Assembly (NCBI GenBank): GCA_965237885.1 | Contig: CBDEGN010000001.1 | Span: 71,527-135,526 of the forward strand | Reading direction: 5' to 3' | Length of the DNA: 64,000 nucleotides | From: Longimicrobiales bacterium | GTDB lineage: Bacteria > Gemmatimonadota > Gemmatimonadetes > Longimicrobiales > Gaopeijiaceae | In this document: one piece after another, positions 1-62,078 of the stretch | How the letters are laid out: every line of letters begins with the position of its first letter | Numbering within the stretch: position 1 is the first letter of the stretch | Made by a program: the position numbers and the translations under genes | Notes under the pieces: generated by a model | What the model saw: the letters and a program-made list of their open reading frames with translations, nothing else | What the model was told of the DNA's origin: nothing | Databases searched by the model: none

Positions 1-94
1 GTCACTTGTACCGCTCCTCATCACCACCAGTACCGGAGCCTTCCCACTCCGCACAGATCCGCTCGACTTCAACCACGGGAGCATCAAGCGGTGA
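1..94 (+). CDS. 3' end of an unidentified protein-coding gene (partial, begins left of the window)
   Basis: + frame 2 is open from nt 2 to TGA at 92-94 (...SLVPLLITTSTGAFPLRTDPLDFNHGSIKR*). Third codon positions are almost all G/C, as in the confident genes here. No family is recognisable from 30 aa. Confidence 0.3.
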   Translation, partial: SLVPLLITTSTGAFPLRTDPLDFNHGSIKR

Positions 95-161
95 ATGATG
101 AAGCTCCTCCACCGGGAGAGCACAGCCCTTAGCGCGAGGCCGGCATTTGCAGGGACGGGGA

Positions 162-995
162 TCATTGGCGCTCGCCGGCCAAGCTTGCCAGCGCCGCCTT
201 GAGAACCTGGAAGCAGACCTTGGCGGTGTGTTCGTCCGGCGTGAAACCCGAGATCAATTGTTGATACGGGTGGATGTAGTTTCGGAAGTCGCGCAACCCG
301 TGGCTGAACTTCTTGATGTCAAGCTTCAGGACCCCGACCTCGCAGGAGACGTTGATTAGCTGGGCGAGGCTCCACTCGTGAAAGCGTTTCGGCGACCCAT
401 TCTCTGTCTTCGGCGTCGCCTTCGCCTGATTGAAGCTCGCTGGATCCTGTTGCGCTGCGCCAAGCAGGACGGCTTCCAGGACGCTGCCGCAAAGGAAGAT
501 CACAGACAGATGAGCACCGGCGCCGAGCGCTACGCGGGCCTCGTTCAACCGTGCTTCGACGATCGGCGCGACCTGCGTGTCGATCGGCAACTTGTGGATG
601 TTTGGAATGGTGAACTCGCGGTTCAGGAACTCGCTCTCCTTACTGGCAGAGTTGAGGACCACTGGTCGACCGGTCATACGGCCAACGATACCTCGTGCCC
701 TTTCCAGCAAGACCCCGTCGATGTCCTTGCCATTGAGTTCGCAGTCGGTCTCATAGGAATCCAGCATCTCGGAGAGCGCGGCCCCAACCAGCTGATCGGG
801 TTCCAATTGCCAGAAGGCGCGAAGCTTCTTCGCCTTGGAGGTGCCGAAGGTCTGGTACCTGCGGCCGTGGATATCGACGTTGTGTCGTCGGAAGAACTCG
901 CCAAAAGTGGCGTCGGTGAAGTCAAGCACATAGCCGCTGCTCATGCCGAGCAACTTCTCGAAATAGCGTTTCTCAATATCCGTCAGAGAACTCAT
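162..995 (-). CDS. AbiJ-like protein: N-terminal AbiJ-NTD-like region plus C-terminal HEPN domain
   Basis: 277-aa ORF. The N-terminus (EKRYFEKLLGMSSGYVLDFTDATFGEFF) resembles N-terminal domains of AbiJ-family proteins; this is from memory, not a search. The C-terminus carries a HEPN-type Rx4-6H signature (LRDFRNYIHP). Its ATG (995-993) overlaps the hsdS TGA (994-992) as ATGA. Confidence 0.55.
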   Translation of the reverse strand: MSSLTDIEKRYFEKLLGMSSGYVLDFTDATFGEFFRRHNVDIHGRRYQTFGTSKAKKLRAFWQLEPDQLVGAALSEMLDSYETDCELNGKDIDGVLLERARGIVGRMTGRPVVLNSASKESEFLNREFTIPNIHKLPIDTQVAPIVEARLNEARVALGAGAHLSVIFLCGSVLEAVLLGAAQQDPASFNQAKATPKTENGSPKRFHEWSLAQLINVSCEVGVLKLDIKKFSHGLRDFRNYIHPYQQLISGFTPDEHTAKVCFQVLKAALASLAGERQ

Positions 996-2620
996 GCCTC
1001 GGCCTCGATCGCTAGGGCGGCCATGGCCAATTGAGTTTCCCCGGACATGAGCTTGGGAAGGAGGCCGTCACGCAGGGCGGCGAGTAGCCGAGATTGGTCC
1101 GCGTTGTGCCTAACCATGGCGAAGAGAGGAGCGATCAAGCGGGAAAAGGCTCTACTCGTCGAGTTCGCTGGTACGACCAGAGGAATCGCTTTCAGGTTCT
1201 TCTGGTTGAGTTTGGGCTGGACGGCACCGGTAACGAACGCAGTGATGTTGGTGCTCTTTAGGTGAAGGTACAGATGCTCGTCGCTGATTCCCTTGGTGCC
1301 CTTGATCACGTGTGCGTGATTGTTGACCCAGAATCTGCCCCAGACGTACTGCACGACCGGATGGCCGTGAGCGTCGACCACCGAGCCATCTTCGCCCGTC
1401 AGTATGTGGACTCCGTCAAAGAGATAACCGTCCACGTAGTCCATGATGCCAGCCGCACCGTAGTACGGATATGAGCCCTGTCGGTCGGCTCGCTGGCGCT
1501 TGTTGAGGGGAATCCGCTTGCGGTCGTGGAGCTCAATCACCGTCCCCAACCTCGCGACCTCCCACCCCTCCGGTATCTCCCCCATCTCAGCATCCACAAG
1601 GCGGTCGGGGAACAGGTCGGCGATGTCCTGCGGCAACCCCGTGTCTCGGCCCTCCACCTTGGCCTGCACCGGATCGAAATCGACGAACCAAGACTTGAAC
1701 AACGCCCGCGCTATCGCTTCCAGCGTTTCGTTCATCCGACGGTTCACATCGATCTTGTCGTCCAACGTCCCGAGGATGTGGGCGATGGCGCGTTGCTCGG
1801 ACAGGTCGTCCGGGGCCTCCACATCGAAGGCTGCGACCATAGCTTTCGTCAGGGCGTTCCGTGTTCCGCCAGACCCGGCCCAAGACAATAGCTTGGCCTG
1901 CGTCTCGGGACAGACCAGGAAATACCGTAGAAAGCCAGGATCGAGCTGGGTCGGATCAGGGCGAATGATCGCTACATGCTGGTTGACGCGGGCGGGCAGG
2001 ATGTGCGGGTCCACCTGACATGCGCGCGCGACTGAATCCCCGGTAATGTTGAGTAGAACGTCTCGGTCCAGAACCTCCACTCCTGCGAGGTCTGAGGCGT
2101 GCTGCTCGCCGATGTACGCAAGCCCGTCGTGACGAAAACCGTCATTGAATACGTTCTGGCTTCGGATGAATGCGTACGGCCCGCCCGGCAAGTAGACATC
2201 TTTGCCACCGCGCGGCGTCGCGCCACTGCCGATCTTGGTGCAAACCGCACCGAGACTGAGCGACACCCAGTCGCCCGGACAACCGAGCGTTGAGGAGGAA
2301 TCGTACCCTTCATGAGTCGGCCGTTCGTACCAGGCGATACCCTGCCGCCGGATATGTTCTCGCAGCGTCCGGTCTCGTATTGAATTGTACAGCAGCAGAT
2401 CGACCGACTGCGCCATCGGAATCTTGTCGATCGCCGCAGCCAGGCGCGCCTGATCCGTCCACGTAAGCCGGTCCCCAAACAACGCGATGTCGACGTCGGA
2501 CGTCACGGTATTCGTCTCGGTCGCTCGGGATCCGAACAACACGGCCCGTTCTACCCGATCATTGGCTGCGATCACAGCGATGATCGCCTCGCGATGAGCG
2601 TCCTTGAGGCCGTCCGTCAT
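992..2620 (-). CDS. hsdS: Type I R-M specificity subunit HsdS with an N-terminal minimal nucleotidyltransferase (MNT, HI0073-like) domain fused in-frame
   Basis: 542-aa ORF. Residues 1-100 carry the MNT signature (LFGSRATETNTVTSDVDIALFG = GSx10DxD, then ...LLLYNSIRDRTLREHIRRQGIAWYE). From ~aa 115 onward it is a typical two-TRD HsdS (GDWVSLSLGAVCTKIGSGATPRGG..., central conserved SEQRAIAHILGTLDDKIDVNRRMNETLEAIARALFKSWFVDF, C-terminal LLPKLMSGE). There is no stop and no internal start between the two parts. Confidence 0.8.
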   Translation of the reverse strand: MTDGLKDAHREAIIAVIAANDRVERAVLFGSRATETNTVTSDVDIALFGDRLTWTDQARLAAAIDKIPMAQSVDLLLYNSIRDRTLREHIRRQGIAWYERPTHEGYDSSSTLGCPGDWVSLSLGAVCTKIGSGATPRGGKDVYLPGGPYAFIRSQNVFNDGFRHDGLAYIGEQHASDLAGVEVLDRDVLLNITGDSVARACQVDPHILPARVNQHVAIIRPDPTQLDPGFLRYFLVCPETQAKLLSWAGSGGTRNALTKAMVAAFDVEAPDDLSEQRAIAHILGTLDDKIDVNRRMNETLEAIARALFKSWFVDFDPVQAKVEGRDTGLPQDIADLFPDRLVDAEMGEIPEGWEVARLGTVIELHDRKRIPLNKRQRADRQGSYPYYGAAGIMDYVDGYLFDGVHILTGEDGSVVDAHGHPVVQYVWGRFWVNNHAHVIKGTKGISDEHLYLHLKSTNITAFVTGAVQPKLNQKNLKAIPLVVPANSTSRAFSRLIAPLFAMVRHNADQSRLLAALRDGLLPKLMSGETQLAMAALAIEAEA

Positions 2621-3030
2621 CTCGTTCGCCTGGCGTCCAGAGCCTGGTGGAGTCGTAGCAGCGCAGGGTGGTAGCGTTCCTTGATCAGCGTCTCCGCCTC
2701 CTGCGCCACGTCGAGCAAATAGGCATGGCTCAATAGGTTGCGCTTGTCCAGCGCGTCGAGCAGGGTCTCGCAGTCGCTCTCGTCGATGTAGTCCACCTCG
2801 AAGCTCTTGCGGATCACCGCGCGCGGGGCCTTCACGTCATAGCCCTCGTAGAAGAGGAGATCCTTGAGCACCTTCCAGGACAGCTCGAAACTGAACTCGA
2901 ACGTCTTGATCAGTCCGGCTAGTTCCAGGTAGTCGTACCGTTCCCGGTCACAGGCATTTGTGAGTTGCGCGAGCGCCGTCCCGAAAGTATCGAGTCGCTG
3001 CTGCCAGCGCCGCTCGTCCGAATTGCTCAC
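2617..3030 (-). CDS. HEPN-domain protein, HI0074-type nucleotidyltransferase substrate-binding family (HepT-like toxin candidate)
   Basis: 137 aa from GTG at 3030. [16 protein letters not shown]...[26 protein letters not shown]...[14 protein letters not shown] matches the HI0074 family pattern, including the RNxxxH (Rx4H) HEPN motif. The GTG overlaps the hsdM stop as GTGA (3030-3027), and its TGA overlaps the hsdS ATG as ATGA (2620-2617). The longer 272-aa ORF in the track would run inside hsdM and is Arg/Gly-rich junk upstream of this start. Confidence 0.75.
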
Positions 3031-4583
3031 GGTCCCTTCCCCCCGAATCCCAGCGCCTCCAGGTTCTTGGTGATCGCGGCGTCGAGCCGGGCGCCTTCGG
3101 CCTGCTGCTGCCGAAGCTCGGCAACCAGCCGCTTCATCTTGTCCTCGAACGGCTCGCCGTCGTCCTCCTGCGGCTCCACACCGACGTACCGGCCCGGCGT
3201 CAGCACATGGCCGTGCTTGCGTACCTCGTCCAGCACAACACTCTTGCAGAATCCGGGAACATCGGCGTAACCGTCCCCCTCCGCTCCCGTCCGCCAAGCG
3301 TGGTAGGTATCCGCGATCCGTGCGATGTCCTCGTCGGTCAGTTCCCGGTGCGTCCTGTCCACCATCCGGCCGAGCTTCCTCGCGTCGATGAACAGGATCT
3401 CTCCGCGCCGCCGGCACCCACGCGCCAGGAACCACAGGCAGGCTGGGATCTGGGTCGAATAGAAAAGCTGGCCCGGCAGAGCGACCATGCAGTCGACCAG
3501 CTCCGCCTCGATCAGGTTCTTCCGAATCTCGCCCTCTCCGGACTGATTCGACGACATCGACCCGTTGGCCAGCACGAACCCCGCCACCCCCTTCGGGGCG
3601 AGGTGGTGGACCATGTGCTGCACCCAGGCGAAGTTCGCGTTGCCCTTGGGCGGGATGCCGTAGCGCCAGCGCTTGTCCTCGACCAGCCGCTCGCCGCCCC
3701 AGTCCGAGACATTGAACGGCGGGTTGGCGAGGATGAAATCAGCCTTCAGGTCCGGATGGCGATCGTTGTGGAAGCTGTCGCCATGGGCGATCTGCCCGCC
3801 GATCCCGCGAATGGCCAGATTCATCCTGGCGAGCCGCCACGTCGTGTAGTTCGACTCCTGGCCGTAGATCGAGATGTCACCTTGCCCCTTGCCGCCGTTA
3901 CCGTTGCCGCTGGCGTGGGCGTGAATGAACTCGACCGACTGCACGAACATTCCCGAGGACCCGCAGCAGGGATCATAGACCCGCCCCCGGTAGGGTTCGA
4001 GCATCTCGACGAGGAGCTTGACAAGGCAGCGTGGGGTGTAGAACTCGCCACCCCGCTTCCCCTCGGCACTCGCGAACTGCGAGAGGAAGTACTCGTATAC
4101 GCGGCCGAGCACGTCCCGGGAGCGGGCTTCGGCATCCCCGACACGGATGTTTCCGATCATGTCGATGAGTTGGCCGAGACGTTGCTTGTCCAAGGCAGGT
4201 CGCGCGTAGTCCTTGGGCAGCACTTCCTTCAGCGCCGGGTTGTCGCGTTCGATCGCGGTCATGGCCCGGTCTACGGTCTGGCCGATGGTGGGCTGCCGCG
4301 CCCGGGCCTTCAGGTGTGCCCAGCGGGCTTCCTGCGGCACCCAGAAAATGTTCTCGGCGATGTACTCGTCGCGATCCTCTGCGGCCTCCTCTCCCCACTC
4401 GGCCAGCACCGTCGCGTGCCGCTCCTCGAACGCGTCCGAGATGTACTTGAGGAAGATCAAGCCGAGCACGACGTGCTTGTACTCGGACGCATCCATGGAG
4501 CCGCGGAGCGTATCCGCCATCGCCCACAGCTCGGCCTCGTAGCCGGTCGTGGCGCCGCTGTCGGTCTTCTTTCTTGCCATCAT
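3027..4583 (-). CDS. hsdM: Type I R-M N6-adenine DNA methyltransferase subunit HsdM
   Basis: N-terminal HsdM_N-like region ([34 protein letters not shown]). AdoMet motif [12 protein letters not shown]-like ([13 protein letters not shown]). Catalytic motif IV is ILANPPFN. The start is taken at the MMARKK methionines; the upstream part of the track ORF is less protein-like. Confidence 0.9.
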
Positions 4584-4788
4584 CCTCGCTGCCTTCATGC
4601 TCGCCATCGCCCTGGGCGAACTTCCAGAGCCGGATCGGAGCCCAAGATACGACATTTGACGTGCCGCCGTACACCTTGCTCAGGCGGGTCGCTAATTCGG
4701 GGAGATTCCCCGCCCCCAAAGTACTCGATCCGACTACCGGGGCGTGTCGGCGGTGGGTAACACCGGTATCTACGCCGGTTCTCCTCCA

Positions 4789-5925
4789 TCACGCCGTTTG
4801 GGCTCGCCGCCAGTCGTCGAAGTCGAGCAGATTGCGGAGGAAGAGTTCGTACTGCTCGCTCGGGTCAGTAGTTGGTCTATCGGCAAAGGTGGTGTTCGCC
4901 TGACGACCTTCCAGGAAAGCTTCCAGTTCGCCGGGATTCAGCACCGGAATGTCGAGTCTCCCGTCCCATCGCGACCGCGCCTCAGTAGCAGATTCGCCTT
5001 CTCCGCGTGCCAGTAAGCCCTTCGAGTCGTCACGGCCTTGGAGCGCGGTCCAGAACCGCTGGACCGCGTAGCGAATGCTGTCGGCCCTGTAGAAGTAGAA
5101 ACGCCCTCGCCCGACCGGCTCCCAGTGAGGAGCGACCATGTCCTTCTTGCGGTTGTCGAAGCTCACGTAGTGGATGCGTCTCAACAGCGTTTGGTGGCAA
5201 CGGAGTTCGTACCAGCCGGCGTGATTGTCGTCGGTTCGGACCTCGCCCCGCGTCCACTCCTGAGCACTGTCCAAGTGGTCGTGTGCCGCACTCGCCGCCT
5301 TCAGCGTGAATTCGGGAAAGACATCGTGGTGGCAGCAGATGAATCCGGCCTCTTCACGCAGGGTCCAGGCCGCCGGTTCGGCGAGCAACCGTTTGGCTTT
5401 CTCCAGCGCGGGCGCGTCCAAGCCGAACCGCTGCCGCCACATTCGCTCGATCTCGTGGGGCTGGGCGGCGCGGTTGACTGGCGTGTTGGTGTCACAGACG
5501 CGCGTGTAGATGTGATGCGCGCAGACCTTCTGGATCCTCTTGACAAGGTAGTACGGCTTCTTCGGCTCGTCCTCGATGATCAGCACGTCCACCTGCTTGG
5601 CGTCTATCTCTATCGTGCGGAGGTGGAATGTCGGGAATCTCGACTGGAAGAACTTGTCCGCGTTGTCCCGGAACAGGCCGGCGATTTCAGCCTGGGTCAG
5701 GCGCCCTTCGTCGTCCTCGATCGTCTGCACCGACGCACCGCCGTCCTCCACACCAAAAACGAGGAATCGGGGACCATCGTGCTCCGCGTTCGCGAGGCAG
5801 AGCACGTCGTGGACTAGATCCCCTTTGTTGGCGTGGTGCTTGAGCTTGAAGTCCCAGTAGACGCCTTCGCTGCGGCGACCGATCAGGTCCCGGACGATCT
5901 GCGCGAGAGTGTGGTCAGCGATCAC
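4789..5925 (-). CDS. AlbA_2 (Schlafen-like putative DNA/RNA-binding) domain protein with an uncharacterised C-terminal half
   Basis: 378-aa ORF. The N-terminus (SEGVYWDFKLKHH...LVHDVLCLANAEHDGPRFLVFGVEDGG) fits the AlbA_2 pattern (E.K....l.k.i.A.aN..GG.l.iGv.d.g). The C-terminal ~200 aa are unrecognised. It lies on the same strand as hsdM, 134 nt upstream. Confidence 0.55.
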   Translation of the reverse strand: MIADHTLAQIVRDLIGRRSEGVYWDFKLKHHANKGDLVHDVLCLANAEHDGPRFLVFGVEDGGASVQTIEDDEGRLTQAEIAGLFRDNADKFFQSRFPTFHLRTIEIDAKQVDVLIIEDEPKKPYYLVKRIQKVCAHHIYTRVCDTNTPVNRAAQPHEIERMWRQRFGLDAPALEKAKRLLAEPAAWTLREEAGFICCHHDVFPEFTLKAASAAHDHLDSAQEWTRGEVRTDDNHAGWYELRCHQTLLRRIHYVSFDNRKKDMVAPHWEPVGRGRFYFYRADSIRYAVQRFWTALQGRDDSKGLLARGEGESATEARSRWDGRLDIPVLNPGELEAFLEGRQANTTFADRPTTDPSEQYELFLRNLLDFDDWRRAQTA

Positions 5926-6040
5926 GGTTGCCGACTTCGGCTGCGGTTGGCTTCTTGGCGCGGGGATGTCTGTGTACCTATTGCGATGAATTGCAGGGAA
6001 TTAGGATGGCACATAAGACATCCTGAAACCTCCCGAGACC

Positions 6041-7087
6041 TCAGAAGATCGACTTCGGCATGTGCATGCTGACCAGCATGTGCGGCACGTCCACCGTCTC
6101 GGAGATCTTCATGTCGCCGGCGATCGAGCAGAGCACGTAGGCTTCCTCGGGCGTGAGGCCGTGCTCGGCGACCAGGTAGTCGATCATGTAGCGGGTCGCC
6201 TTGCGGGCGGCTTCGTCGATGGTGGTGGCGAAGCCGGTCACGGCGTAGTAGTCGTCGGTCTCGTACTGGGGCTCGACCATCCCGCGTGTGTTCTCCATGA
6301 CCTCGACTTCGAAGACGATGCGCATGGGCGTCTCGATGGCCGAACCGGACACCTCGCCGTCGCCCTGGGCCGCGTGCGTGTCGCCGATGGAGAACAGGGC
6401 GCCCTCGACCTGCACCGGGAAGTAGACGGTCGTCCCGGCGATCATGTGGCGGTTGTCCATGTTGCCGCCGTTGGTGCGCGGCGGGATGGTCACCAGCATG
6501 GAGTCGGTAGCGGGCGCGACCCCCATGACCCCCGCGAACGGCGCGAGCGGAATGGTGATGTCGTCGTTGAAGCGGACTTCCGTCGCCCCCGCCTCCATCG
6601 GGAAGCCCCGGATCCAGGGCCCGGGGAAGTCTTCCGGCAGGAAGCCGAAGCCGGGGAAGATGCCTGCCCATCCCCAGCCCTGGACCTCGATCTCGTGCAG
6701 CGTCACCGCCAGAATGTCGCCGGGGCTGGCGCCCTCGACGTAGATCGGCCCGGTCAGGGCATGGATGAGGCCGAAGTCGACACTGACCAGGTCCTCCGCC
6801 GTCGTGGATTCCGTGATCTGGCCGTCGGAGGCCTCCTTGGTGAATGCTTCGACGACCGTTCCCGAGGGCACCGTCAGCTGGGGTGGGATGGTAGCGCTCC
6901 AGCGGTTGTGGCTGTTCTCGGAGCCGAGCGTGTACTCGGGGGCCGGAGTCTCGGCGGCGGCGGACGGCGCCTGGCCGGATTGCTCCCCCGGGGCGGACTC
7001 GCTCTGGCAGGACGCCAGGGCCAGCGGGATGACGAAAGCGAAGGTGGCGGCGCACCTGGACGAGCGAGACATTGGCGTGGCGAACAT
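6041..7087 (-). CDS. Acetamidase/formamidase family amidohydrolase (lipoprotein signal)
   Basis: LTGPIYVEGASPGDILAVTLHEI...GGNMDNRHMIAGTTVYFPVQVEGALFSIGDTHAAQGDGEV is characteristic of the FmdA/AmdA family. The start is chosen at MFATPMSRSS, with lipobox LALASC. The track ORF extends further upstream. Confidence 0.85.
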   Translation of the reverse strand: MFATPMSRSSRCAATFAFVIPLALASCQSESAPGEQSGQAPSAAAETPAPEYTLGSENSHNRWSATIPPQLTVPSGTVVEAFTKEASDGQITESTTAEDLVSVDFGLIHALTGPIYVEGASPGDILAVTLHEIEVQGWGWAGIFPGFGFLPEDFPGPWIRGFPMEAGATEVRFNDDITIPLAPFAGVMGVAPATDSMLVTIPPRTNGGNMDNRHMIAGTTVYFPVQVEGALFSIGDTHAAQGDGEVSGSAIETPMRIVFEVEVMENTRGMVEPQYETDDYYAVTGFATTIDEAARKATRYMIDYLVAEHGLTPEEAYVLCSIAGDMKISETVDVPHMLVSMHMPKSIF

Positions 7088-14958: not shown

Positions 14959-15602
14959 GGGAATCGGCGAAGGCGCGCAGGGAGCGAGCCGCCAGGATCT
15001 ATGAACTGCTCGTCGAATGCTATCCCGCGGCCCACTGCGCGCTGCATCACCGCAACCCCTACGAGCTGGCGGTCGCCACCATCCTCTCCGCCCAGTGCAC
15101 CGACGAGCGCGTGAACAAGGTCACGCCGGCCCTCTTCGAGCGATATCCGGAGGCGGAGGATCTGGCCGGGGCGCGCCAGAGCGACGTCGAGGAACTCATC
15201 CACTCCACCGGCTTCTTCCGCAACAAGGCCAGGAATCTGATCGGCATGGCGACGGCGGTTACGGAGAAGCACGGCAACGAGCTGCCGCGCACGATGAAGG
15301 AGCTGGTTGCGCTGCCGGGGATCGGCCGCAAGACCGCCAACGTCATCCTCGGAAACGCCTTCGGCCTCGATGAGGGCGTCGTGGTGGATACCCACATCAA
15401 GCGCCTCTCCGGACGCATGGCTTTCACCCGCTATCCCGATCCCATCCGCATCGAGCGCGACCTGATGAAGCTCTTCCCGCGCGAAAGCTGGACACTGCTG
15501 GCCCATCTCCTGATCTTCCACGGGCGCCAGGTGTGCGCGGCCCGCAAGCCTCGCTGCGAGGAATGCGCGATGTCGCGTCTTTGCCCGTCTTCGAGCGTTT
15601 GA
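14955..15602 (+). CDS. nth: Endonuclease III
   Basis: NPYELAVATILSAQCTDERVNKVTPALF, the HhH-GPD motif LPGIGRKTANVILGNAFG, and the C-terminal 4Fe-4S cluster CAARKPRCEECAMSRLC. Confidence 0.9.
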   Translation: MRESAKARRERAARIYELLVECYPAAHCALHHRNPYELAVATILSAQCTDERVNKVTPALFERYPEAEDLAGARQSDVEELIHSTGFFRNKARNLIGMATAVTEKHGNELPRTMKELVALPGIGRKTANVILGNAFGLDEGVVVDTHIKRLSGRMAFTRYPDPIRIERDLMKLFPRESWTLLAHLLIFHGRQVCAARKPRCEECAMSRLCPSSSV

Positions 15603-15621
15603 ACCCACCCAGCCAAGGACG

Positions 15622-16215
15622 ATGCCCATGCCCAGCCGCCAGGACGCGGTAGCTCTGCTGCACGAGTGGGTCGACAACGAAGGGCTGAGGAAGCACATGT
15701 ACGCGGTCGAGGCCGCCGTGCGCTTCTACGCCCGCAAGCTCGGCGGGGATGAGGAAACGTGGGGCCTCGCCGGCCTCCTGCACGACCTGGACTGGGAGAA
15801 ATACCCGGAGGAGCACCCGCACCGTGGTGTCGCCCGCCTGCGTGAGGACGGCTATTCGGAAGAGGTGATTCGCGCCGTGCTCGCGCACGGATACCCGGAT
15901 CTCACCGACGTCCCCCCGGAGACCGACCTCGACAAGGTCCTTTGCGCCTGCGACGAGCTGAGCGGCCTCGTCTATGCCTGTTGCCTGGTTCGCCCCAACG
16001 GCATCGACGACCTCAAGCCCAGGTCGGTGGCCAAGAAGCTGAAAGACAAGTCGTTCGCTGCGGGCGTTCACCGCGACGAGGTGGCGCGCGGGGTCGAACT
16101 CATCGGGATCCCCCGTCCCGATCACATCCAGAACGTGATCGACGGGCTGAAGACGGCCGCGGACGTGCTGGAGATTCGTGGGGAGGACCTGGCGGCGCGG
16201 AGGAAAGCCAACTGA
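15622..16215 (+). CDS. HD-domain metal-dependent phosphohydrolase
   Basis: KHMYAVEAAVRFYA...AGLLHDLD supplies the H...HD signature. 197 aa. Confidence 0.7.
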   Translation: MPMPSRQDAVALLHEWVDNEGLRKHMYAVEAAVRFYARKLGGDEETWGLAGLLHDLDWEKYPEEHPHRGVARLREDGYSEEVIRAVLAHGYPDLTDVPPETDLDKVLCACDELSGLVYACCLVRPNGIDDLKPRSVAKKLKDKSFAAGVHRDEVARGVELIGIPRPDHIQNVIDGLKTAADVLEIRGEDLAARRKAN

Positions 16216-58731: not shown

Positions 58732-59490
58732 TTTTCCTGGGCCCTCGATTTTACTGGACACCAGACTGGCGAGCGAGAGCGGTGGAGCACTTAGCGCAAC
58801 GTGGAGGTCCGGTTCAGTGATTGTAAGAGATCTTCCAGGGTTTCCGCCGGAGTTCTCCAACCGAGGGTCTTGCGGGGGCGGCTGTTGAGAGCGGTTGCGA
58901 CGGCGGAGAGATCGTCAGCGGTATGTCTGCTGAGATCCGTGCCTTTGGGGAAGTACTGCCTCAACAGGCCGTTGGTGTTCTCGTTCGTGCCGCGCTGCCA
59001 CGGGCTCTGCGGGTCGCAGAAGTAGACGGCCAGGCCAGTATCGATGCGAAGCCGTGCGTGCTGAGCCATCTCTGCTCCCTGGTCCCATGTCAGAGACCGG
59101 CGGAGTTGCTCGGGCAGGGTCGTGATCGACGAAGCGATCGCGTCCCGGACGGCTTCGGCACCGTGTCCAGCCAACGCTGGACCGTTCTTGGTCCTGGGCT
59201 CGCCGTGTTTGTCAAGGCGGGGGAGGTAGAGCAGCATCGTGAACCTGGAGGTCCGCTCGACCAGCGTTCCGATCGCCGAACTGCCCAGCCCCAGGATCAG
59301 GTCGCCTTCCCAGTGCCCGGGGACGGCGCGGTCGTCTGCCTCGGCCGGTCGCTCGCTGAGCATGATCTCGGGGTGAACGAACGTCTTTCCCCGTCTGCGG
59401 GTGCGAGCTCGAGGCACCCGTAGCGCGCGTCCCGTCCGAAGGCACGCTGTCAGCTCCCGTCGCAGCGCACCCCTCTCTGCCAACGCAGCA
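58732..59490 (-). mobile_element. 5'-truncated IS30-family element
   Basis: Contains only the C-terminal ~230 aa of an IS30 transposase (58791-59490). The upstream side is cut by the IS3-family element starting at 59491, and the downstream side abuts the IS3-OrfB remnant. Boundaries are approximate. Confidence 0.6.
58791..59490 (-). pseudogene. IS30-family DDE transposase, N-terminally truncated
   Basis: RPAEADDRAVPGHWEGDLILG..., SLTWDQGAEMAQH, and VYFCDPQSPWQRGTNENTNGLLRQYFPKGTDLS...LNSRPRKTLGWRTPAE are the conserved IS30 catalytic-core motifs. The HTH region is missing. Confidence 0.8.
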
Positions 59491-59561
59491 TGAGACACGA
59501 GAGGAGCAAACGCTTAGAGTAGGGCGAGGTGGAGAGTTGGAGGATGGGACGAGGAGAAGGA

Positions 59562-59993
59562 ATGAAATCGAACGGAGTCCCCCCTGCTGCGGGGGAGAGG
59601 AAGCGAGGCGCGGCGGTCCCGCCGGACCCGGAGGTTTCGGCGAAGGCGAAGCGGCGGCGCTTCACGGCGGGGTACAAGCTGTCGATCATCGAGCAGGCCG
59701 ACCAGTGCGGGACACCGGGCGAGATGGGTCGTCTGCTGCGGCGCGAGGGGCTGTACAGCTCGCATCTGTCGGCGTGGCGGAAGGCGGCGCGGGAAGGGTC
59801 GCTGCGGGAGCTGGCCAGGAAGCGCGGCCCGAAGCCTTCGGCCGGGAAGCGGGATTTGAAGAACCTGCGAAGGCTCGAGCGTGAGAACGCGCGCCTGCGT
59901 GAGGAGCTCCGCAAGGCGCGGATCGTCATCGAGGTGCAGGGAAAAGTATCGGGGCTGCTGGGGTTGAGCCTCGGGGACGGGAAGTCCTCTTGA
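59562..59993 (+). CDS. IS3-family transposase OrfA (HTH)
   Basis: RRRFTAGYKLSIIEQADQCGTPGEMGRLLRREGLYSSHLSAWRK... followed by a leucine-zipper-like LRRLERENARLREELRKARIVIEV. The ATG at 59562 is preceded by AGGAG. Confidence 0.8.
   Translation: MKSNGVPPAAGERKRGAAVPPDPEVSAKAKRRRFTAGYKLSIIEQADQCGTPGEMGRLLRREGLYSSHLSAWRKAAREGSLRELARKRGPKPSAGKRDLKNLRRLERENARLREELRKARIVIEVQGKVSGLLGLSLGDGKSS
59939..59945 (+). promoter_or_regulatory. Candidate -1 programmed ribosomal frameshift heptamer G_GGA_AAA
   Basis: In the orfA frame the codons are cag GGA AAA gta. The heptamer fits X_XXY_YYZ. The -1 frame (the orfB frame) is open from here through the annotated orfB start at 59990. Confidence 0.55.
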
Positions 59994-61045
59994 GCGCGGC
60001 CGGAGAGCTTGCCGGGCATGTGGGCGTGAGAGCCGCGTGCAAGGCGCTGCGGGTTGCGCACTCGACGTACTACCGTCGCCGGAGGCCGAAGAAGACCGGG
60101 CAGCGGCAGCCCCGGCCGACGCCTGCCCGGGCCTTGAGCGAAGCGGAGCGGACGGAGGTGTTCGAGGTGCTGTGCTCGTCGCGCTTCGCGGACCGCGCTC
60201 CCGCGGAAGTGTACGCGACGCTGCTGGACGAAGGCGTCTACCTGTGCTCCGAGCGCACGATGTACCGGATTCTGGCCGAGAACCGGGCGGTCCGTGAGCG
60301 CCGCGCCCAGCGCAGCCACCCGAACCATCCGAAGCCCGAGGTCGTGGCCCGCGGGCCCAACGAGGCGTGGTCCTGGGACGTCACCCGGCTTCTTGGACCG
60401 CGGAAGGGGCAGTACTTCCACCTCTACGTGATCCTGGACATCTTCAGCCGCTACGTCACCGGATGGATGGTGGCGGAGCGCGAAACCGCAGGCCTGGCCG
60501 GACGCCTGATCGAGGCAAGCTGCCTTAAGCACGGCGTCCGGCCCCAAGTGCTTACCCTTCATTCGGATCGGGGATCTCCCATGACGGCCAAGTGCACGGC
60601 GCAACTGCTGGCCGACCTGGGCGTCACGCAATCGCTGAGCCGTCCCCGGGTCTCGAACGACAACCCCTACTCGGAGGCGCAGTTCAAGACCGTCAAGTAC
60701 CACCCCGGCTTCCCCGGCCGGTTCTCCAACATCGAGGAGGCGAAGGAGTTCTGCCGGTCGTTCTTCCCGTGGTACAACACCGAGCACCGGCATGGCGGCA
60801 TCGGCCTGCTCACCCCCGCCCAGGTCCACTTCGGCGATGCCCCCGAGGTGATCCGCCAGAGGCAGGACGTTCTCGCCGCCGCCTACGCCGCCCGTCCGGA
60901 GCGCTTTGTGGCCGGCCCGCCCCGGGCCTCGGAACTCCCCGCGCAGGTCTGGATCAACCCCCCACTCCCCGTCAGCGCAGTTGACGGTGAAGATCGGACA
61001 GCGGATGGTGAGGGTGACGACGGAAAGGAGGGCTCACTACACTGA
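59990..61045 (+). CDS. IS3-family transposase OrfB (rve integrase core; probably expressed as an OrfAB fusion)
   Basis: WSWDVTRL...YVILDIFSRYVTGWMV, LHSDRGSPMT, and PRVSNDNPYSEAQFKTVKYHP...YNTEHRHGGIG supply the DDE/rve motifs. The frame is -1 relative to orfA. Confidence 0.85.
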   Translation: MSAAGELAGHVGVRAACKALRVAHSTYYRRRRPKKTGQRQPRPTPARALSEAERTEVFEVLCSSRFADRAPAEVYATLLDEGVYLCSERTMYRILAENRAVRERRAQRSHPNHPKPEVVARGPNEAWSWDVTRLLGPRKGQYFHLYVILDIFSRYVTGWMVAERETAGLAGRLIEASCLKHGVRPQVLTLHSDRGSPMTAKCTAQLLADLGVTQSLSRPRVSNDNPYSEAQFKTVKYHPGFPGRFSNIEEAKEFCRSFFPWYNTEHRHGGIGLLTPAQVHFGDAPEVIRQRQDVLAAAYAARPERFVAGPPRASELPAQVWINPPLPVSAVDGEDRTADGEGDDGKEGSLH

Positions 61046-61064
61046 ATCAGCAACGTGTCTCAAA

Positions 61065-62078
61065 TTCGTTGACAGGTTCCGGAGCAGCATCCGTCGCACC
61101 ATCGGGATCGACATCTCCAAGGACTGGCTCGACGCCTTCGCCTCGCCCGAGGGGAGAGCATCCCGGTTTTCGAACGATGCGGCCGGCTTCCGCAAGCTGA
61201 TCGCCTGGATCGGCTCCGAGGTCGACCGGATCGCGTACGAACCCACCGGACCCTTCCACCGCGACTTCGAGGATACCCTCCTGAAGGCCGGACTCCCCCT
61301 GTACGCGATCAACCCCTTCCAGGTCCGTTCCTTCGCCCGCTCCCTCGGCCGGCGCGCCAAGACCGATGCCGTGGGCGCCCGCATGCTGGCCACCATGGCG
61401 GCGGCCATCGAGGATCTGCGCCCGGCTCAAGCGAGATCGGAGGGACAGCGCGATCTCGCCGAACTCCAACAGATCCGCGACGCGCTGCTGAAGGACCGAG
61501 TCGCCACCACCAACCGCGGCAAGCACTTGCGCACTCCCGTGGGCAAGCGGCTCACCAGGCAGAGGCTGAAGCAGATCAAGCGCCAGCTGAAAGTCATCGA
61601 CGCCGAGATCCGGCAACGGCTCGAGGCGGAGGAGGCCCTGGAGCGCCGGGCCGAGATCCTGACCTCCATCCCGGGCATCTCGGACATCACCGCCGCGGGA
61701 CTGATCATCCACATGCCGGAGCTGGGCACGCTCACCGGCGCCCGTGCCGCCAGCCTCGCCGGACTCGCCCCGATCACCCGGGAGTCCAGATACTGGAAGG
61801 GACGCGGCTTCATCCAGGGCGGCAGGCACCGGTTGCGCCGGCTGCTCTACATGCCCGCGCTGGTCGCGGTCCAGTACAATCCCGACCTCAAGCGGAAGTA
61901 CGAGGCGCTCGTGGCCAAGGGGAAACCGCCGAAAGTCGCCCTGACGGCGGTGATGCGGAAGCTCGTTCTCGCCAACACGCTGGTGCAGCAGGACCGCATC
62001 TGGACGGCGCATGCGCCCAGAGAATGCTCCAGCTCCGTCTTCCCGACGCCCCGCCACGCGGGGAGCGGTCACGGATGA
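61065..62078 (+). CDS. IS110-family (DEDD) transposase lacking a canonical start codon; 5' end abuts the IS3 right terminus
   Basis: IGIDISKDWLDAF...IAYEPTGPFH...YAINPFQVRSFA...KTDAVGARMLA (DEDD_Tnp_IS110 part), and ILTSIPGISDITAAGLIIHMPELG...SLAGLAP...SGRHRLRRLLYMPALVA (Transposase_20 part). There is no in-frame ATG/GTG/TTG between the IS3 end (61062) and the conserved GIDxSK. Confidence 0.75.
   Translation, partial: FVDRFRSSIRRTIGIDISKDWLDAFASPEGRASRFSNDAAGFRKLIAWIGSEVDRIAYEPTGPFHRDFEDTLLKAGLPLYAINPFQVRSFARSLGRRAKTDAVGARMLATMAAAIEDLRPAQARSEGQRDLAELQQIRDALLKDRVATTNRGKHLRTPVGKRLTRQRLKQIKRQLKVIDAEIRQRLEAEEALERRAEILTSIPGISDITAAGLIIHMPELGTLTGARAASLAGLAPITRESRYWKGRGFIQGGRHRLRRLLYMPALVAVQYNPDLKRKYEALVAKGKPPKVALTAVMRKLVLANTLVQQDRIWTAHAPRECSSSVFPTPRHAGSGHG

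Follow-up and report, generated by a model that had tools for sequence, protein, structure and literature searches.

A 64,000-nucleotide (nt) stretch of the genome of a Longimicrobiales bacterium (contig CBDEGN010000001.1, positions 71,527 to 135,526; the whole stretch is referred to here as the window) carries at its left end a type I restriction-modification (R-M) operon. A type VII (HepT/MntA-like) toxin-antitoxin pair is built into this operon, which is complete when the sequence of an identical contig is considered. The toxin-type member of the pair is a small HEPN protein, and the antitoxin-type member is a minimal nucleotidyltransferase (MNT) that does not have a gene of its own, since it forms the N-terminal domain of the specificity subunit HsdS. 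All these features are carried by the minus strand, where hsdM is followed by the HEPN gene, the fused MNT::hsdS gene and a fourth gene, X, in that order:

3027-4583, minus strand: hsdM, 518 amino acids (aa); start as called on the identical contig (L087), the longest open reading frame (ORF) reaching 4655
2617-3030, minus strand: HEPN toxin-type gene of the HI0074 / NTase_sub_bind family, 137 aa, GTG start
992-2620, minus strand: MNT::HsdS gene, 542 aa, ATG start
2321-2620, minus strand: MNT domain, aa 1-100 of the 542-aa protein
2270-2320, minus strand: flexible linker, aa 101-117 (PTHEGYDSSSTLGCPGD)
992-2269, minus strand: HsdS part, aa 118-542, with two target-recognition domains (TRDs) and the central and C-terminal conserved helices
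162-995, minus strand: gene X, 277 aa, ATG start, no profile match

The operon and the fused gene

Each pair of consecutive genes overlaps by 4 nt. The GTGA at 3030-3027 contains the hsdM stop codon TGA (3029-3027) and the GTG of the HEPN gene (3030-3028); the ATGA at 2620-2617 contains the HEPN stop codon TGA (2619-2617) and the ATG of the 542-aa ORF (2620-2618), and the ATGA at 995-992 contains the stop codon of this ORF (994-992) and the ATG of X (995-993). Because every junction is an overlap of this kind, the four genes are translationally coupled. A previous sequence-only reading of this DNA had described the first two overlaps and had placed the HEPN and MNT sequences between hsdM and hsdS; both overlaps are read directly from the sequence and the placement was correct, but the coupled fourth gene was left unmentioned. 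A scan of window positions 1-6200 for promoters and terminators gave none above the shuffle background.

The region comprising aa 11-100 of the 542-aa protein matched the Polbeta profile PF18765 (E = 6e-15) and also NTP_transf_2. It includes the motif G30-S31-x10-D42-V43-D44 and a third carboxylate, D74, which agrees with the earlier assignment of the first ~100 aa to a minimal nucleotidyltransferase with the sequence GSx10DVD. Residues G30, S31, R32, S41, D42, D44 and D74 are invariant among 48 fused homologs, and the pattern GSx(9-11)DxD is present in 48 of the 49 MNT domains found in fused loci and in 81 of all 82 MNT domains. The nearest entry in the Protein Data Bank (PDB) is the Legionella MNT 8xeh_E (E = 2.7e-10); the end of the domain coincides with the end of the short form of the Legionella protein, and the linker to HsdS begins there.

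An AlphaFold model of the 542-aa protein was built on the 48 homologs. Its predicted local distance difference test score (pLDDT) is 80-91 in the body of the MNT domain, falls below 50 for aa 102-115, and is mostly above 90 in HsdS; this pattern suggests two folded units on a flexible tether. Among homologs the linker is variable in sequence and about 7-43 aa long (median 18 aa). As had been noted from the sequence, the frame continues through the linker into HsdS without a stop codon; in contrast, the statement that no internal start exists does not hold, given that codon 119 is GTG. Internal initiation of a free HsdS may occur at this codon, which has no Shine-Dalgarno-like sequence upstream. 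The out-of-frame sequence CATGAA in the linker was considered as a relic of an ancestral ATGA overlap and discarded, since its ATG and TGA are in neither the MNT nor the hsdS frame; it is probably a coincidence.

The 137-aa protein matched NTase_sub_bind (PF08780) with an E value of 5.5e-28, and scored 66.2 bits with TIGR01987 (HI0074), above the family cut-off of 55.8; these profile searches support its identification as an HI0074-type HEPN protein with the motif RNLLSH. The complete motif, RNLLSHAY (aa 97-104), corresponds to R97-x4-H102-x-Y104, that is RxxxxHxY with the acceptor tyrosine. R97, S101, H102 and Y104 are invariant in an alignment of the two HEPN types associated with these fusions (HEPN_A and HEPN_B, see below); E45, the equivalent of E47 in the Legionella protein, is also invariant, and a lysine aligns with Legionella Q44. 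The RxxxxHxY motif is kept in 40 of the 44 HEPN genes adjoining fused MNTs and in 66 of all 75 adjacent HEPN genes. The protein is a single NTase_sub_bind domain without the N-terminal ABC-ATPase regulatory domain of the PrrC type. Its nearest PDB entry is 8xdj, the Legionella HEPN toxin (E = 1.6e-16); both halves of the pair are therefore nearest to the characterized Legionella pair lpg2920/lpg2921, and its designation as a type VII HEPN/MNT pair is upheld.

HsdM is the N6-adenine DNA methyltransferase subunit of a type I enzyme (HsdM_N and N6_Mtase, E = 3e-107; PADLOC MTase_I, E = 7e-223; nearest PDB entry 3khk, E = 4e-143), and is 89-93% identical to the HsdM proteins of the related loci L001-L004. 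In the HsdS part, two Methylase_S stretches were detected with Pfam, as expected for the full two-TRD subunit that had been proposed to follow the linker, and the nearest structure is 1yf2 (E = 7e-16). The PADLOC Specificity_I models cover aa 114-538 end to end (aa 117-538 correspond to model positions 4-442 of 446), hence HsdS is complete. The AlphaFold model shows its long helices at aa 273-313 and 486-525, and the unfused relatives P0029, P0036 and P0043 begin at a position equivalent to aa ~113.

A tblastn search found no hsdR inside the window, whose left 135 nt diverge from the related loci. The contig L087 (ENA ERZ26167107, contig_36), found by an exact-protein look-up, is 100% identical to window positions 1-6064. 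In this contig the next genes of the operon after X are a RhuM-family gene and then a gene for a 1046-aa HsdR (HSDR_N, ResIII, SWI2_SNF2, T1RH-like_C):

L087 11297-11905: RhuM-family gene, start codon at window 5-3, between X and hsdR

Since X, the RhuM-family gene and the HEPN gene all belong to the operon, it includes three accessory genes besides the fused MNT. In most related loci hsdR is present too, downstream of the fused gene.

Recurrence, variants and module exchange

A search with the whole 542-aa protein recovered dozens of clusters (at 90% identity) carrying Polbeta and Methylase_S together, 43-93% identical to the query and labelled, where named, just as 'restriction endonuclease subunit S'. 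The same cassette was seen in four distant members, whose contigs measure 0.1-6 Mb: hsdM comes first, then a NTase_sub_bind gene of 137-142 aa, the gene of the fused S subunit, a small ORF that may be absent, and hsdR. Scoring the MNT domain by itself against 1.84 billion representatives gave 1550 relatives at E ≤ 1e-3. An alignment of 150 members (A3), formed by the window protein and the closest representatives, from clusters at 50% identity, of the MNT domain, includes Methylase_S (Pfam) in 69 of the 150, and the fusion persists down to about 42% identity of the MNT domain.

In a scan of GTDB with one genome per species 194 loci were identified, and the scripted census figures given here cover the best 80. 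The MNT is fused to HsdS in 47 loci, split from it in 7 (by an in-frame stop, a frameshift, or a second pair in between) and free in 26. The survey for MNT-HsdS fusions that had been suggested thus shows that what could have been a single odd locus, or a frameshift, is a widespread and conserved cassette present in many independent assemblies. The HEPN gene lies immediately upstream of the MNT in 75 of the 80 loci, usually with a 4-nt overlap; among the fused loci, 44 of 47 have an adjacent HEPN gene and in 34 of 47 hsdM abuts it. Sixteen of the 26 free loci are devoid of any hsd gene, and in another 8 the unfused pair lies beside hsdM. The HEPN-first order remarked on in the sequence-only reading is real; nonetheless, it is not particular to the fusion, being shared by the whole clade including the 16 stand-alone pairs. 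Given that in this order the 3' end of the MNT gene adjoins hsdS, it is a precondition of the fusion and not its consequence.

The 47 fused loci are spread over about 10 phyla. The hosts recovered in the scan, all of them metagenome-assembled genomes, belong to Gemmatimonadota/Longimicrobiales, Rhodothermales, Vicinamibacterales, Bryobacterales, Thermoanaerobaculia, Spirochaetia, Acidimicrobiales, Opitutales, cyanobacteria, Alpha- and Gammaproteobacteria, Nitrospinaceae and Binatia, and several genomes have 2-4 copies. Judging from their names (RHO/COS bins, Candidatus Palauibacter, Aphanocapsa feldmannii), we take many of these hosts to be symbionts of marine sponges or otherwise host-associated. 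No close relative was found in a plasmid collection, where only distant free pairs appeared (≤37% identity), or among viral contigs, where the only relatives were at 28% identity. The lack of close plasmid and viral relatives may be the reason why this architecture has gone unnoticed. The motif rates in the fused loci (40/44 for HEPN, 48/49 for MNT) match or exceed those in the unfused loci; from this retention in the fused state, both activities appear to be under selection.

The possibility that a lost stop codon or a frameshift, introduced by sequencing, assembly or pseudogenization, joins two separate genes is an a priori suspicion; in-frame stops or frameshifts are present at the junction in some of the related loci (L019, L024, L062). 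Nevertheless, the frame runs uninterrupted in dozens of independent assemblies, complete chromosomes from long reads among them, the independently assembled contig is 100% identical over 6 kb, and the linker conserves its length while its sequence varies. The recurrence of the fusion in so many assemblies rules out this explanation, to which we assign a practically negligible probability. In two Rhodothermales loci (L019, 6346-6348; L024, 6370-6372), a single in-frame stop lies in the linker between MNT and HsdS; it could represent a recent fission, a sequencing error or a site of read-through.

Fusion to HsdS is also seen in a second MNT clade, type B, whose cognate HEPN_B gene lies upstream (P0062, P0115, P0047, P0099, P0116). 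MNT_B is 24-36% identical to the MNT of the window and the HEPN proteins share 21-33%, whereas the HsdM proteins of the type B loci are 90-93% identical to that of the window. TRD1 and the central region of the window protein are 80-84% identical to those of the type B proteins P0062 and P0115; in turn, its MNT domain is 85-90% identical to that of P0004 and P0020, whose TRDs differ. Since the identities of MNT, TRD1 and TRD2 are discordant, these behave as three independently exchanged modules.

Both clades also occur in a single protein. The tandem form MNT_A-MNT_B::HsdS is found in proteins P0060, P0065, P0075 and P0105 and in loci L080 and L085, and in the latter both HEPN_B and HEPN_A genes lie upstream of the tandem gene. 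Loci L049 and L051 carry double cassettes with the order hsdM, HEPN_B, MNT_B::S, HEPN_A and a second MNT_A ORF. In L051 this second ORF is fused to a second HsdS and is followed by hsdR; in L049 it encodes a 240-aa MNT_A-MNT_B protein without HsdS, and no hsdR was found in this locus. Among the higher-order loci (L080, L085, L049, L051, L067, L069, L082), a free pair followed by a fused pair was also observed. In a neighbour-joining tree of the MNT domain, which with roughly 100 aa is so short that the tree is weak evidence, fused and unfused forms are intermingled, parsimony requiring about 17 changes; within the clade that is mainly fused, many of the unfused members seem to be products of decay.

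Additional arrangements were noticed around this MNT family. In locus L006 (2890-7108) a HEPN gene and an MNT-MNT::HsdS gene follow, with a 4-nt overlap, a Cap2-like E1/E2 gene of a cyclic oligonucleotide-based antiphage signalling system (patatin, CD-NTase, E1/E2); no hsdM was found in this locus, which may be recombinant or a chimera in a contig of 7x coverage. Single-chain HEPN::MNT, HEPN-MNT-HEPN and Abi_2 (AbiD/F-type HEPN)::MNT proteins occur in the same clade (P0158, P0180, P0200, P0206, P0265), which indicates that this MNT has been repeatedly joined to different partners. A word-indexed search with MNT_B returned short proteins only and missed P0062, the parent of the query, so it is biased by length and gives no fused fraction. 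Several free MNT_B proteins of ~105-130 aa found by this search (P0472, P0476, P0488, P0496, P0498, P0499, P0506) carry the JGI label 'type I restriction enzyme S subunit', an annotation that was probably transferred from fused MNT::HsdS references.

Gene X, the SLFN_AlbA_2 gene and the island

Gene X had no match in Pfam, NCBIfam or PADLOC. Its family, which lacks any annotation, comprises 3664 homologs close to 277 aa in length, of which the best 120 have identities of ≥71%, and has the invariant motif KKFSHGLRDFRNYIHP, which resembles the Rx4-6H site of HEPN proteins. The AlphaFold model of X is all-alpha (pLDDT 77); with Foldseek it gave no match below E = 1 and only weak Csm6/Csx1 rows, and the alignment of X with HEPN by hhalign had a probability of 0.4%. 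The homolog in L002, and only that copy, shows a weak match to DUF4145 (E = 0.043). X was discarded as a core component of the cassette because only three related loci carry it (L001, L002 and L027), and it is thus considered optional. A 280-aa ORF located after hsdR in L004 was examined as a possible homolog of X and rejected, as it shows no similarity.

Upstream of hsdM there is one further gene that is likely related to defence:

4789-5925, minus strand: SLFN_AlbA_2 gene, 378 aa, upstream of hsdM

Its product matched PF04326 (E = 1.4e-9) and the PADLOC phage defence candidate PDC-S50 (E = 6.5e-73), and it is probably a separate defence gene. It lies inside the low-GC block of 6064 bp that is identical to L087, and after hsdR that contig has another SLFN_AlbA_2 gene, of shorter length (15113-15706). 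The GC content is 0.59-0.65 within the 6-kb block and 0.67-0.70 in the flank, and the window and L087 diverge completely at position 6064. A 1.6-kb insertion sequence (IS) with an rve transposase, at window positions 59471-61081, is identical to one placed ~6 kb beyond hsdR on L087. The block 1-6064 together with this IS points to a mobile island, to strain variation or to an assembly join; the lower GC content of the block and the divergence of the two assemblies at 6064 fit the first of these.

Possible role of the tethered antitoxin and known systems

On balance, we lean towards the idea that the operon encodes a working type VII (AMPylation-type) pair in which the antitoxin enzyme belongs to the R-M complex. 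According to this model, the small HEPN protein would be a latent RNase, and the MNT tethered to the N-terminus of HsdS would neutralize it by adding AMP to Y104, beside the RxxxxH motif, as occurs in the closest characterized homologs. Given that HsdS is the scaffold of the M2S1 and R2M2S1 complexes, the antitoxin activity, and probably also the bound HEPN oligomer, would sit on the restriction complex, and translational coupling would ensure that the antitoxin is made in a fixed proportion to it. If HsdS-MNT were removed, blocked or outpaced, unmodified and active HEPN would be left; this might happen if the operon were lost, if HsdS-MNT were degraded by proteolysis or met an anti-restriction factor of a phage, or if ATP were exhausted. 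The active HEPN would then cut RNA and arrest the cell, and in this way it could provide the R-M cassette with a second line of defence, with an addiction function, or with both.

A bolder version of this model, which we regard as tentative and rather doubtful, proposes that the type I complex itself is the antitoxin. The MNT on HsdS would hold and AMPylate the HEPN oligomer on M2S1, and the RNase would stay silent as long as an intact and unobstructed complex is made; anti-restriction factors, loss of the island or ATP exhaustion would release an abortive-infection or addiction response. This design would have been reached with at least two HEPN/MNT pairs, and it would shuffle as a third 'TRD-like' module of hsdS. 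If true, type VII toxin-antitoxin defence coupled to R-M would be a general and previously unrecognized class among uncultured bacteria.

Several observations weigh against a coupling of this kind. AMPylation, toxicity of the RNase, docking on M2S1 and a phage trigger are predictions, the first two drawn from homology to lpg2920/lpg2921. With the NCBIfam MntA equivalog NF047752 the MNT domain scored 42.2 bits, under the cut-off of 60; its sequence assigns it to a different MNT subfamily, that of the Legionella type. For the Legionella HEPN it was reported that the substitutions R98A and H103A barely affect the RNase activity and that a Mg2+ site formed by Q44 and E47 is catalytic (PMC11586414); here a lysine occupies the position equivalent to Q44 and only the glutamate is conserved, therefore the catalytic mechanism of this class of HEPN is unsettled. 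AMPylation is covalent, so the loss of the antitoxin alone would not reactivate the existing toxin, and de-AMPylation or fresh synthesis would be needed. The MNT is N-terminal and would survive a truncation of HsdS, which weakens the simple argument that the fusion protects hsdS. The high identity of HsdM across loci (89-93%) suggests recent horizontal spread, hence the loci are not independent observations. Finally, the existence of free pairs of the same clade (16 of 80 without hsd genes and 8 beside hsdM), in addition to the 7 split forms, implies that tethering is not required for the pair to function.

These free pairs also bear on the view that the fusion is merely genetic, in which a mobile HEPN-then-MNT cassette entered between hsdM and hsdS and the stop codon of the MNT gene was lost. 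The MNT would act just as in the free pairs, the state of the R-M complex having no effect on the toxin; the benefit would be co-inheritance, with the toxin-antitoxin pair stabilizing the R-M island or hitch-hiking with it. Pairs of the same clade and order are common in free form (26 of 80 unfused, 16 of those away from hsd genes), the linker is variable and disordered, the two states are mixed on the domain tree with its about 17 changes, and the locus is a low-GC island near other defence genes and IS elements; moreover, accessory genes embedded in defence operons are a general phenomenon (bioRxiv 10.1101/2024.01.29.577857). Such a fusion should revert easily, yet it has been kept while the MNT diverged to about 42% identity, it is found in two distant MNT clades as well as in a tandem form, and most of the split cases look like decay (frameshifts, truncated hsdS) instead of tidy two-gene versions. 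We consider this view unlikely, with a chance that is far from trivial.

Another proposal, made in the sequence-only reading, is a specific form of the model that we favour and overlaps with it: MNT::HsdS would keep the HEPN protein inactive on the type I enzyme, and a phage anti-restriction protein or peptide that disabled or remodelled this complex would specifically set the toxin free, leading to abortive infection. Toxin control would then depend on the assembly state of M2S1. HsdS, to which the antitoxin is covalently joined, is the subunit targeted by anti-restriction DNA mimics. PrrC/EcoprrI provides a precedent, as do the numerous HEPN families associated with R-M operons (PMC3710099), and the Legionella stoichiometry of one MNT to four HEPN fits one MNT per M2S1. 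The covalent link of MNT to HsdS is the one hint of an association with the R-M enzyme. On the other hand, the trigger is hypothetical, the HEPN protein is devoid of the ABC-ATPase sensor domain of PrrC, and a covalent AMPylation is not reversed simply by a conformational change. In this specific form we judge the proposal to be plausible but less likely than not, at about one chance in several. Quite improbable, in turn, is that MNT and HEPN form a domesticated two-part transferase, in which the HEPN protein is no toxin but the substrate-binding subunit, and which modifies HsdR, HsdM, DNA ends or a phage protein to regulate restriction. The name of the Pfam family and the original structural proposal for HI0073/HI0074 agree with this possibility, and HEPN domains fused to nucleotidyltransferases have often been exapted as substrate-binding modules (PMC3710099); against it, RxxxxH and the acceptor tyrosine are kept at the same rate as in the free toxin-antitoxin pairs, and the nearest characterized relative is a toxic RNase AMPylated by its MNT.

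HEPN RNases linked to R-M systems and accessory genes embedded in defence operons are already established (PMC3710099; PMC3632139; bioRxiv 10.1101/2024.01.29.577857), as are the mechanism of type VII HEPN/MNT pairs and the existence of MNT-HEPN fusions in a single chain (PMC7641770, PMC11586414, PMC13000451). In contrast, a search of the running text of the literature gave no description of an MNT antitoxin domain fused to HsdS, so the architecture appears to be undescribed, as had been supposed. It suggests that restriction and a suicide or arrest RNase are physically coupled. Of the many HEPN RNases encoded within R-M operons, PrrC is the only one whose connection to the restriction enzyme has been worked out; the conserved covalent joining of antitoxin and HsdS offers a concrete and testable coupling point, at which one can ask if an RNase toxin is under the control of the restriction complex and by what it is released. 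It also exposes an annotation gap, since the fused proteins are labelled only as S subunits and free MNTs are sometimes mislabelled as such. In addition, an MNT module that recombines independently of the two TRDs adds an extra layer to the mosaicism of hsdS.

Among the known systems, the Legionella pair lpg2920/lpg2921 (PDB 8xdj, 8xeh, 8xeo) is the closest solved homolog of both halves, with about 30-40% identity. It is a type VII system in which the MNT AMPylates Y105 of the RX4HXY motif, one MNT is bound per HEPN tetramer, and the MNT is a short form without the C-terminal helix (PMC11586414). As in the operon described here, the HEPN protein has about 137-139 aa and the motif RNxxSHxY, and the two genes overlap; unlike here, where the MNT is the N-terminal domain of HsdS within a type I R-M operon, the Legionella MNT is free. 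The same logic is found in HepT/MntA of Shewanella oneidensis (SO_3166/SO_3165) and in the HEPN/MNT pair of Aphanizomenon flos-aquae. The HEPN proteins of these two bacteria are described in the literature as DUF86/HepT type, whereas the one described here is of the PF08780/HI0074 type. In both pairs, an MNT with GSX10DXD (poly)adenylylates the tyrosine of RX4HXY in the HEPN RNase (PMC7641770; PMC13000451, introduction). With HI0073/HI0074 of Haemophilus influenzae the pair shares a HEPN protein that belongs to TIGR01987 and a partner that is a minimal nucleotidyltransferase; it differs in that the order is reversed with respect to the numbering HI0073 (MNT), HI0074 (HEPN), and in that the partner forms one protein with HsdS. 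The first gene of MNT-HEPN dyads is almost always that of the MNT (Anantharaman et al. 2013, PMC3710099), in contrast with the HEPN-first order of this operon.

PrrC/EcoprrI (type Ic) resembles this operon in that the gene of a HEPN-superfamily RNase is embedded in a type I hsd operon, and in the idea of a latent RNase acting as a backup. PrrC has its own ABC-ATPase domain and is silenced non-covalently, whereas here the silencing enzyme would be a domain of HsdS. Nuclease, helicase or ATPase subunits have been reported as the fusion partners of HEPN domains linked to R-M systems (PMC3710099); an MNT fused to the specificity subunit is not mentioned in the text of that work. In single-chain MNT-HEPN proteins, for which control by oligoAMPylation has been demonstrated (PMC13000451), and in the HEPN::MNT proteins P0158, P0180, P0200 and P0206 of the clade described here, the MNT is covalently joined to a partner, as it is here; in those proteins the partner is the toxin itself, whereas in the operon described here it is a subunit of another defence enzyme.

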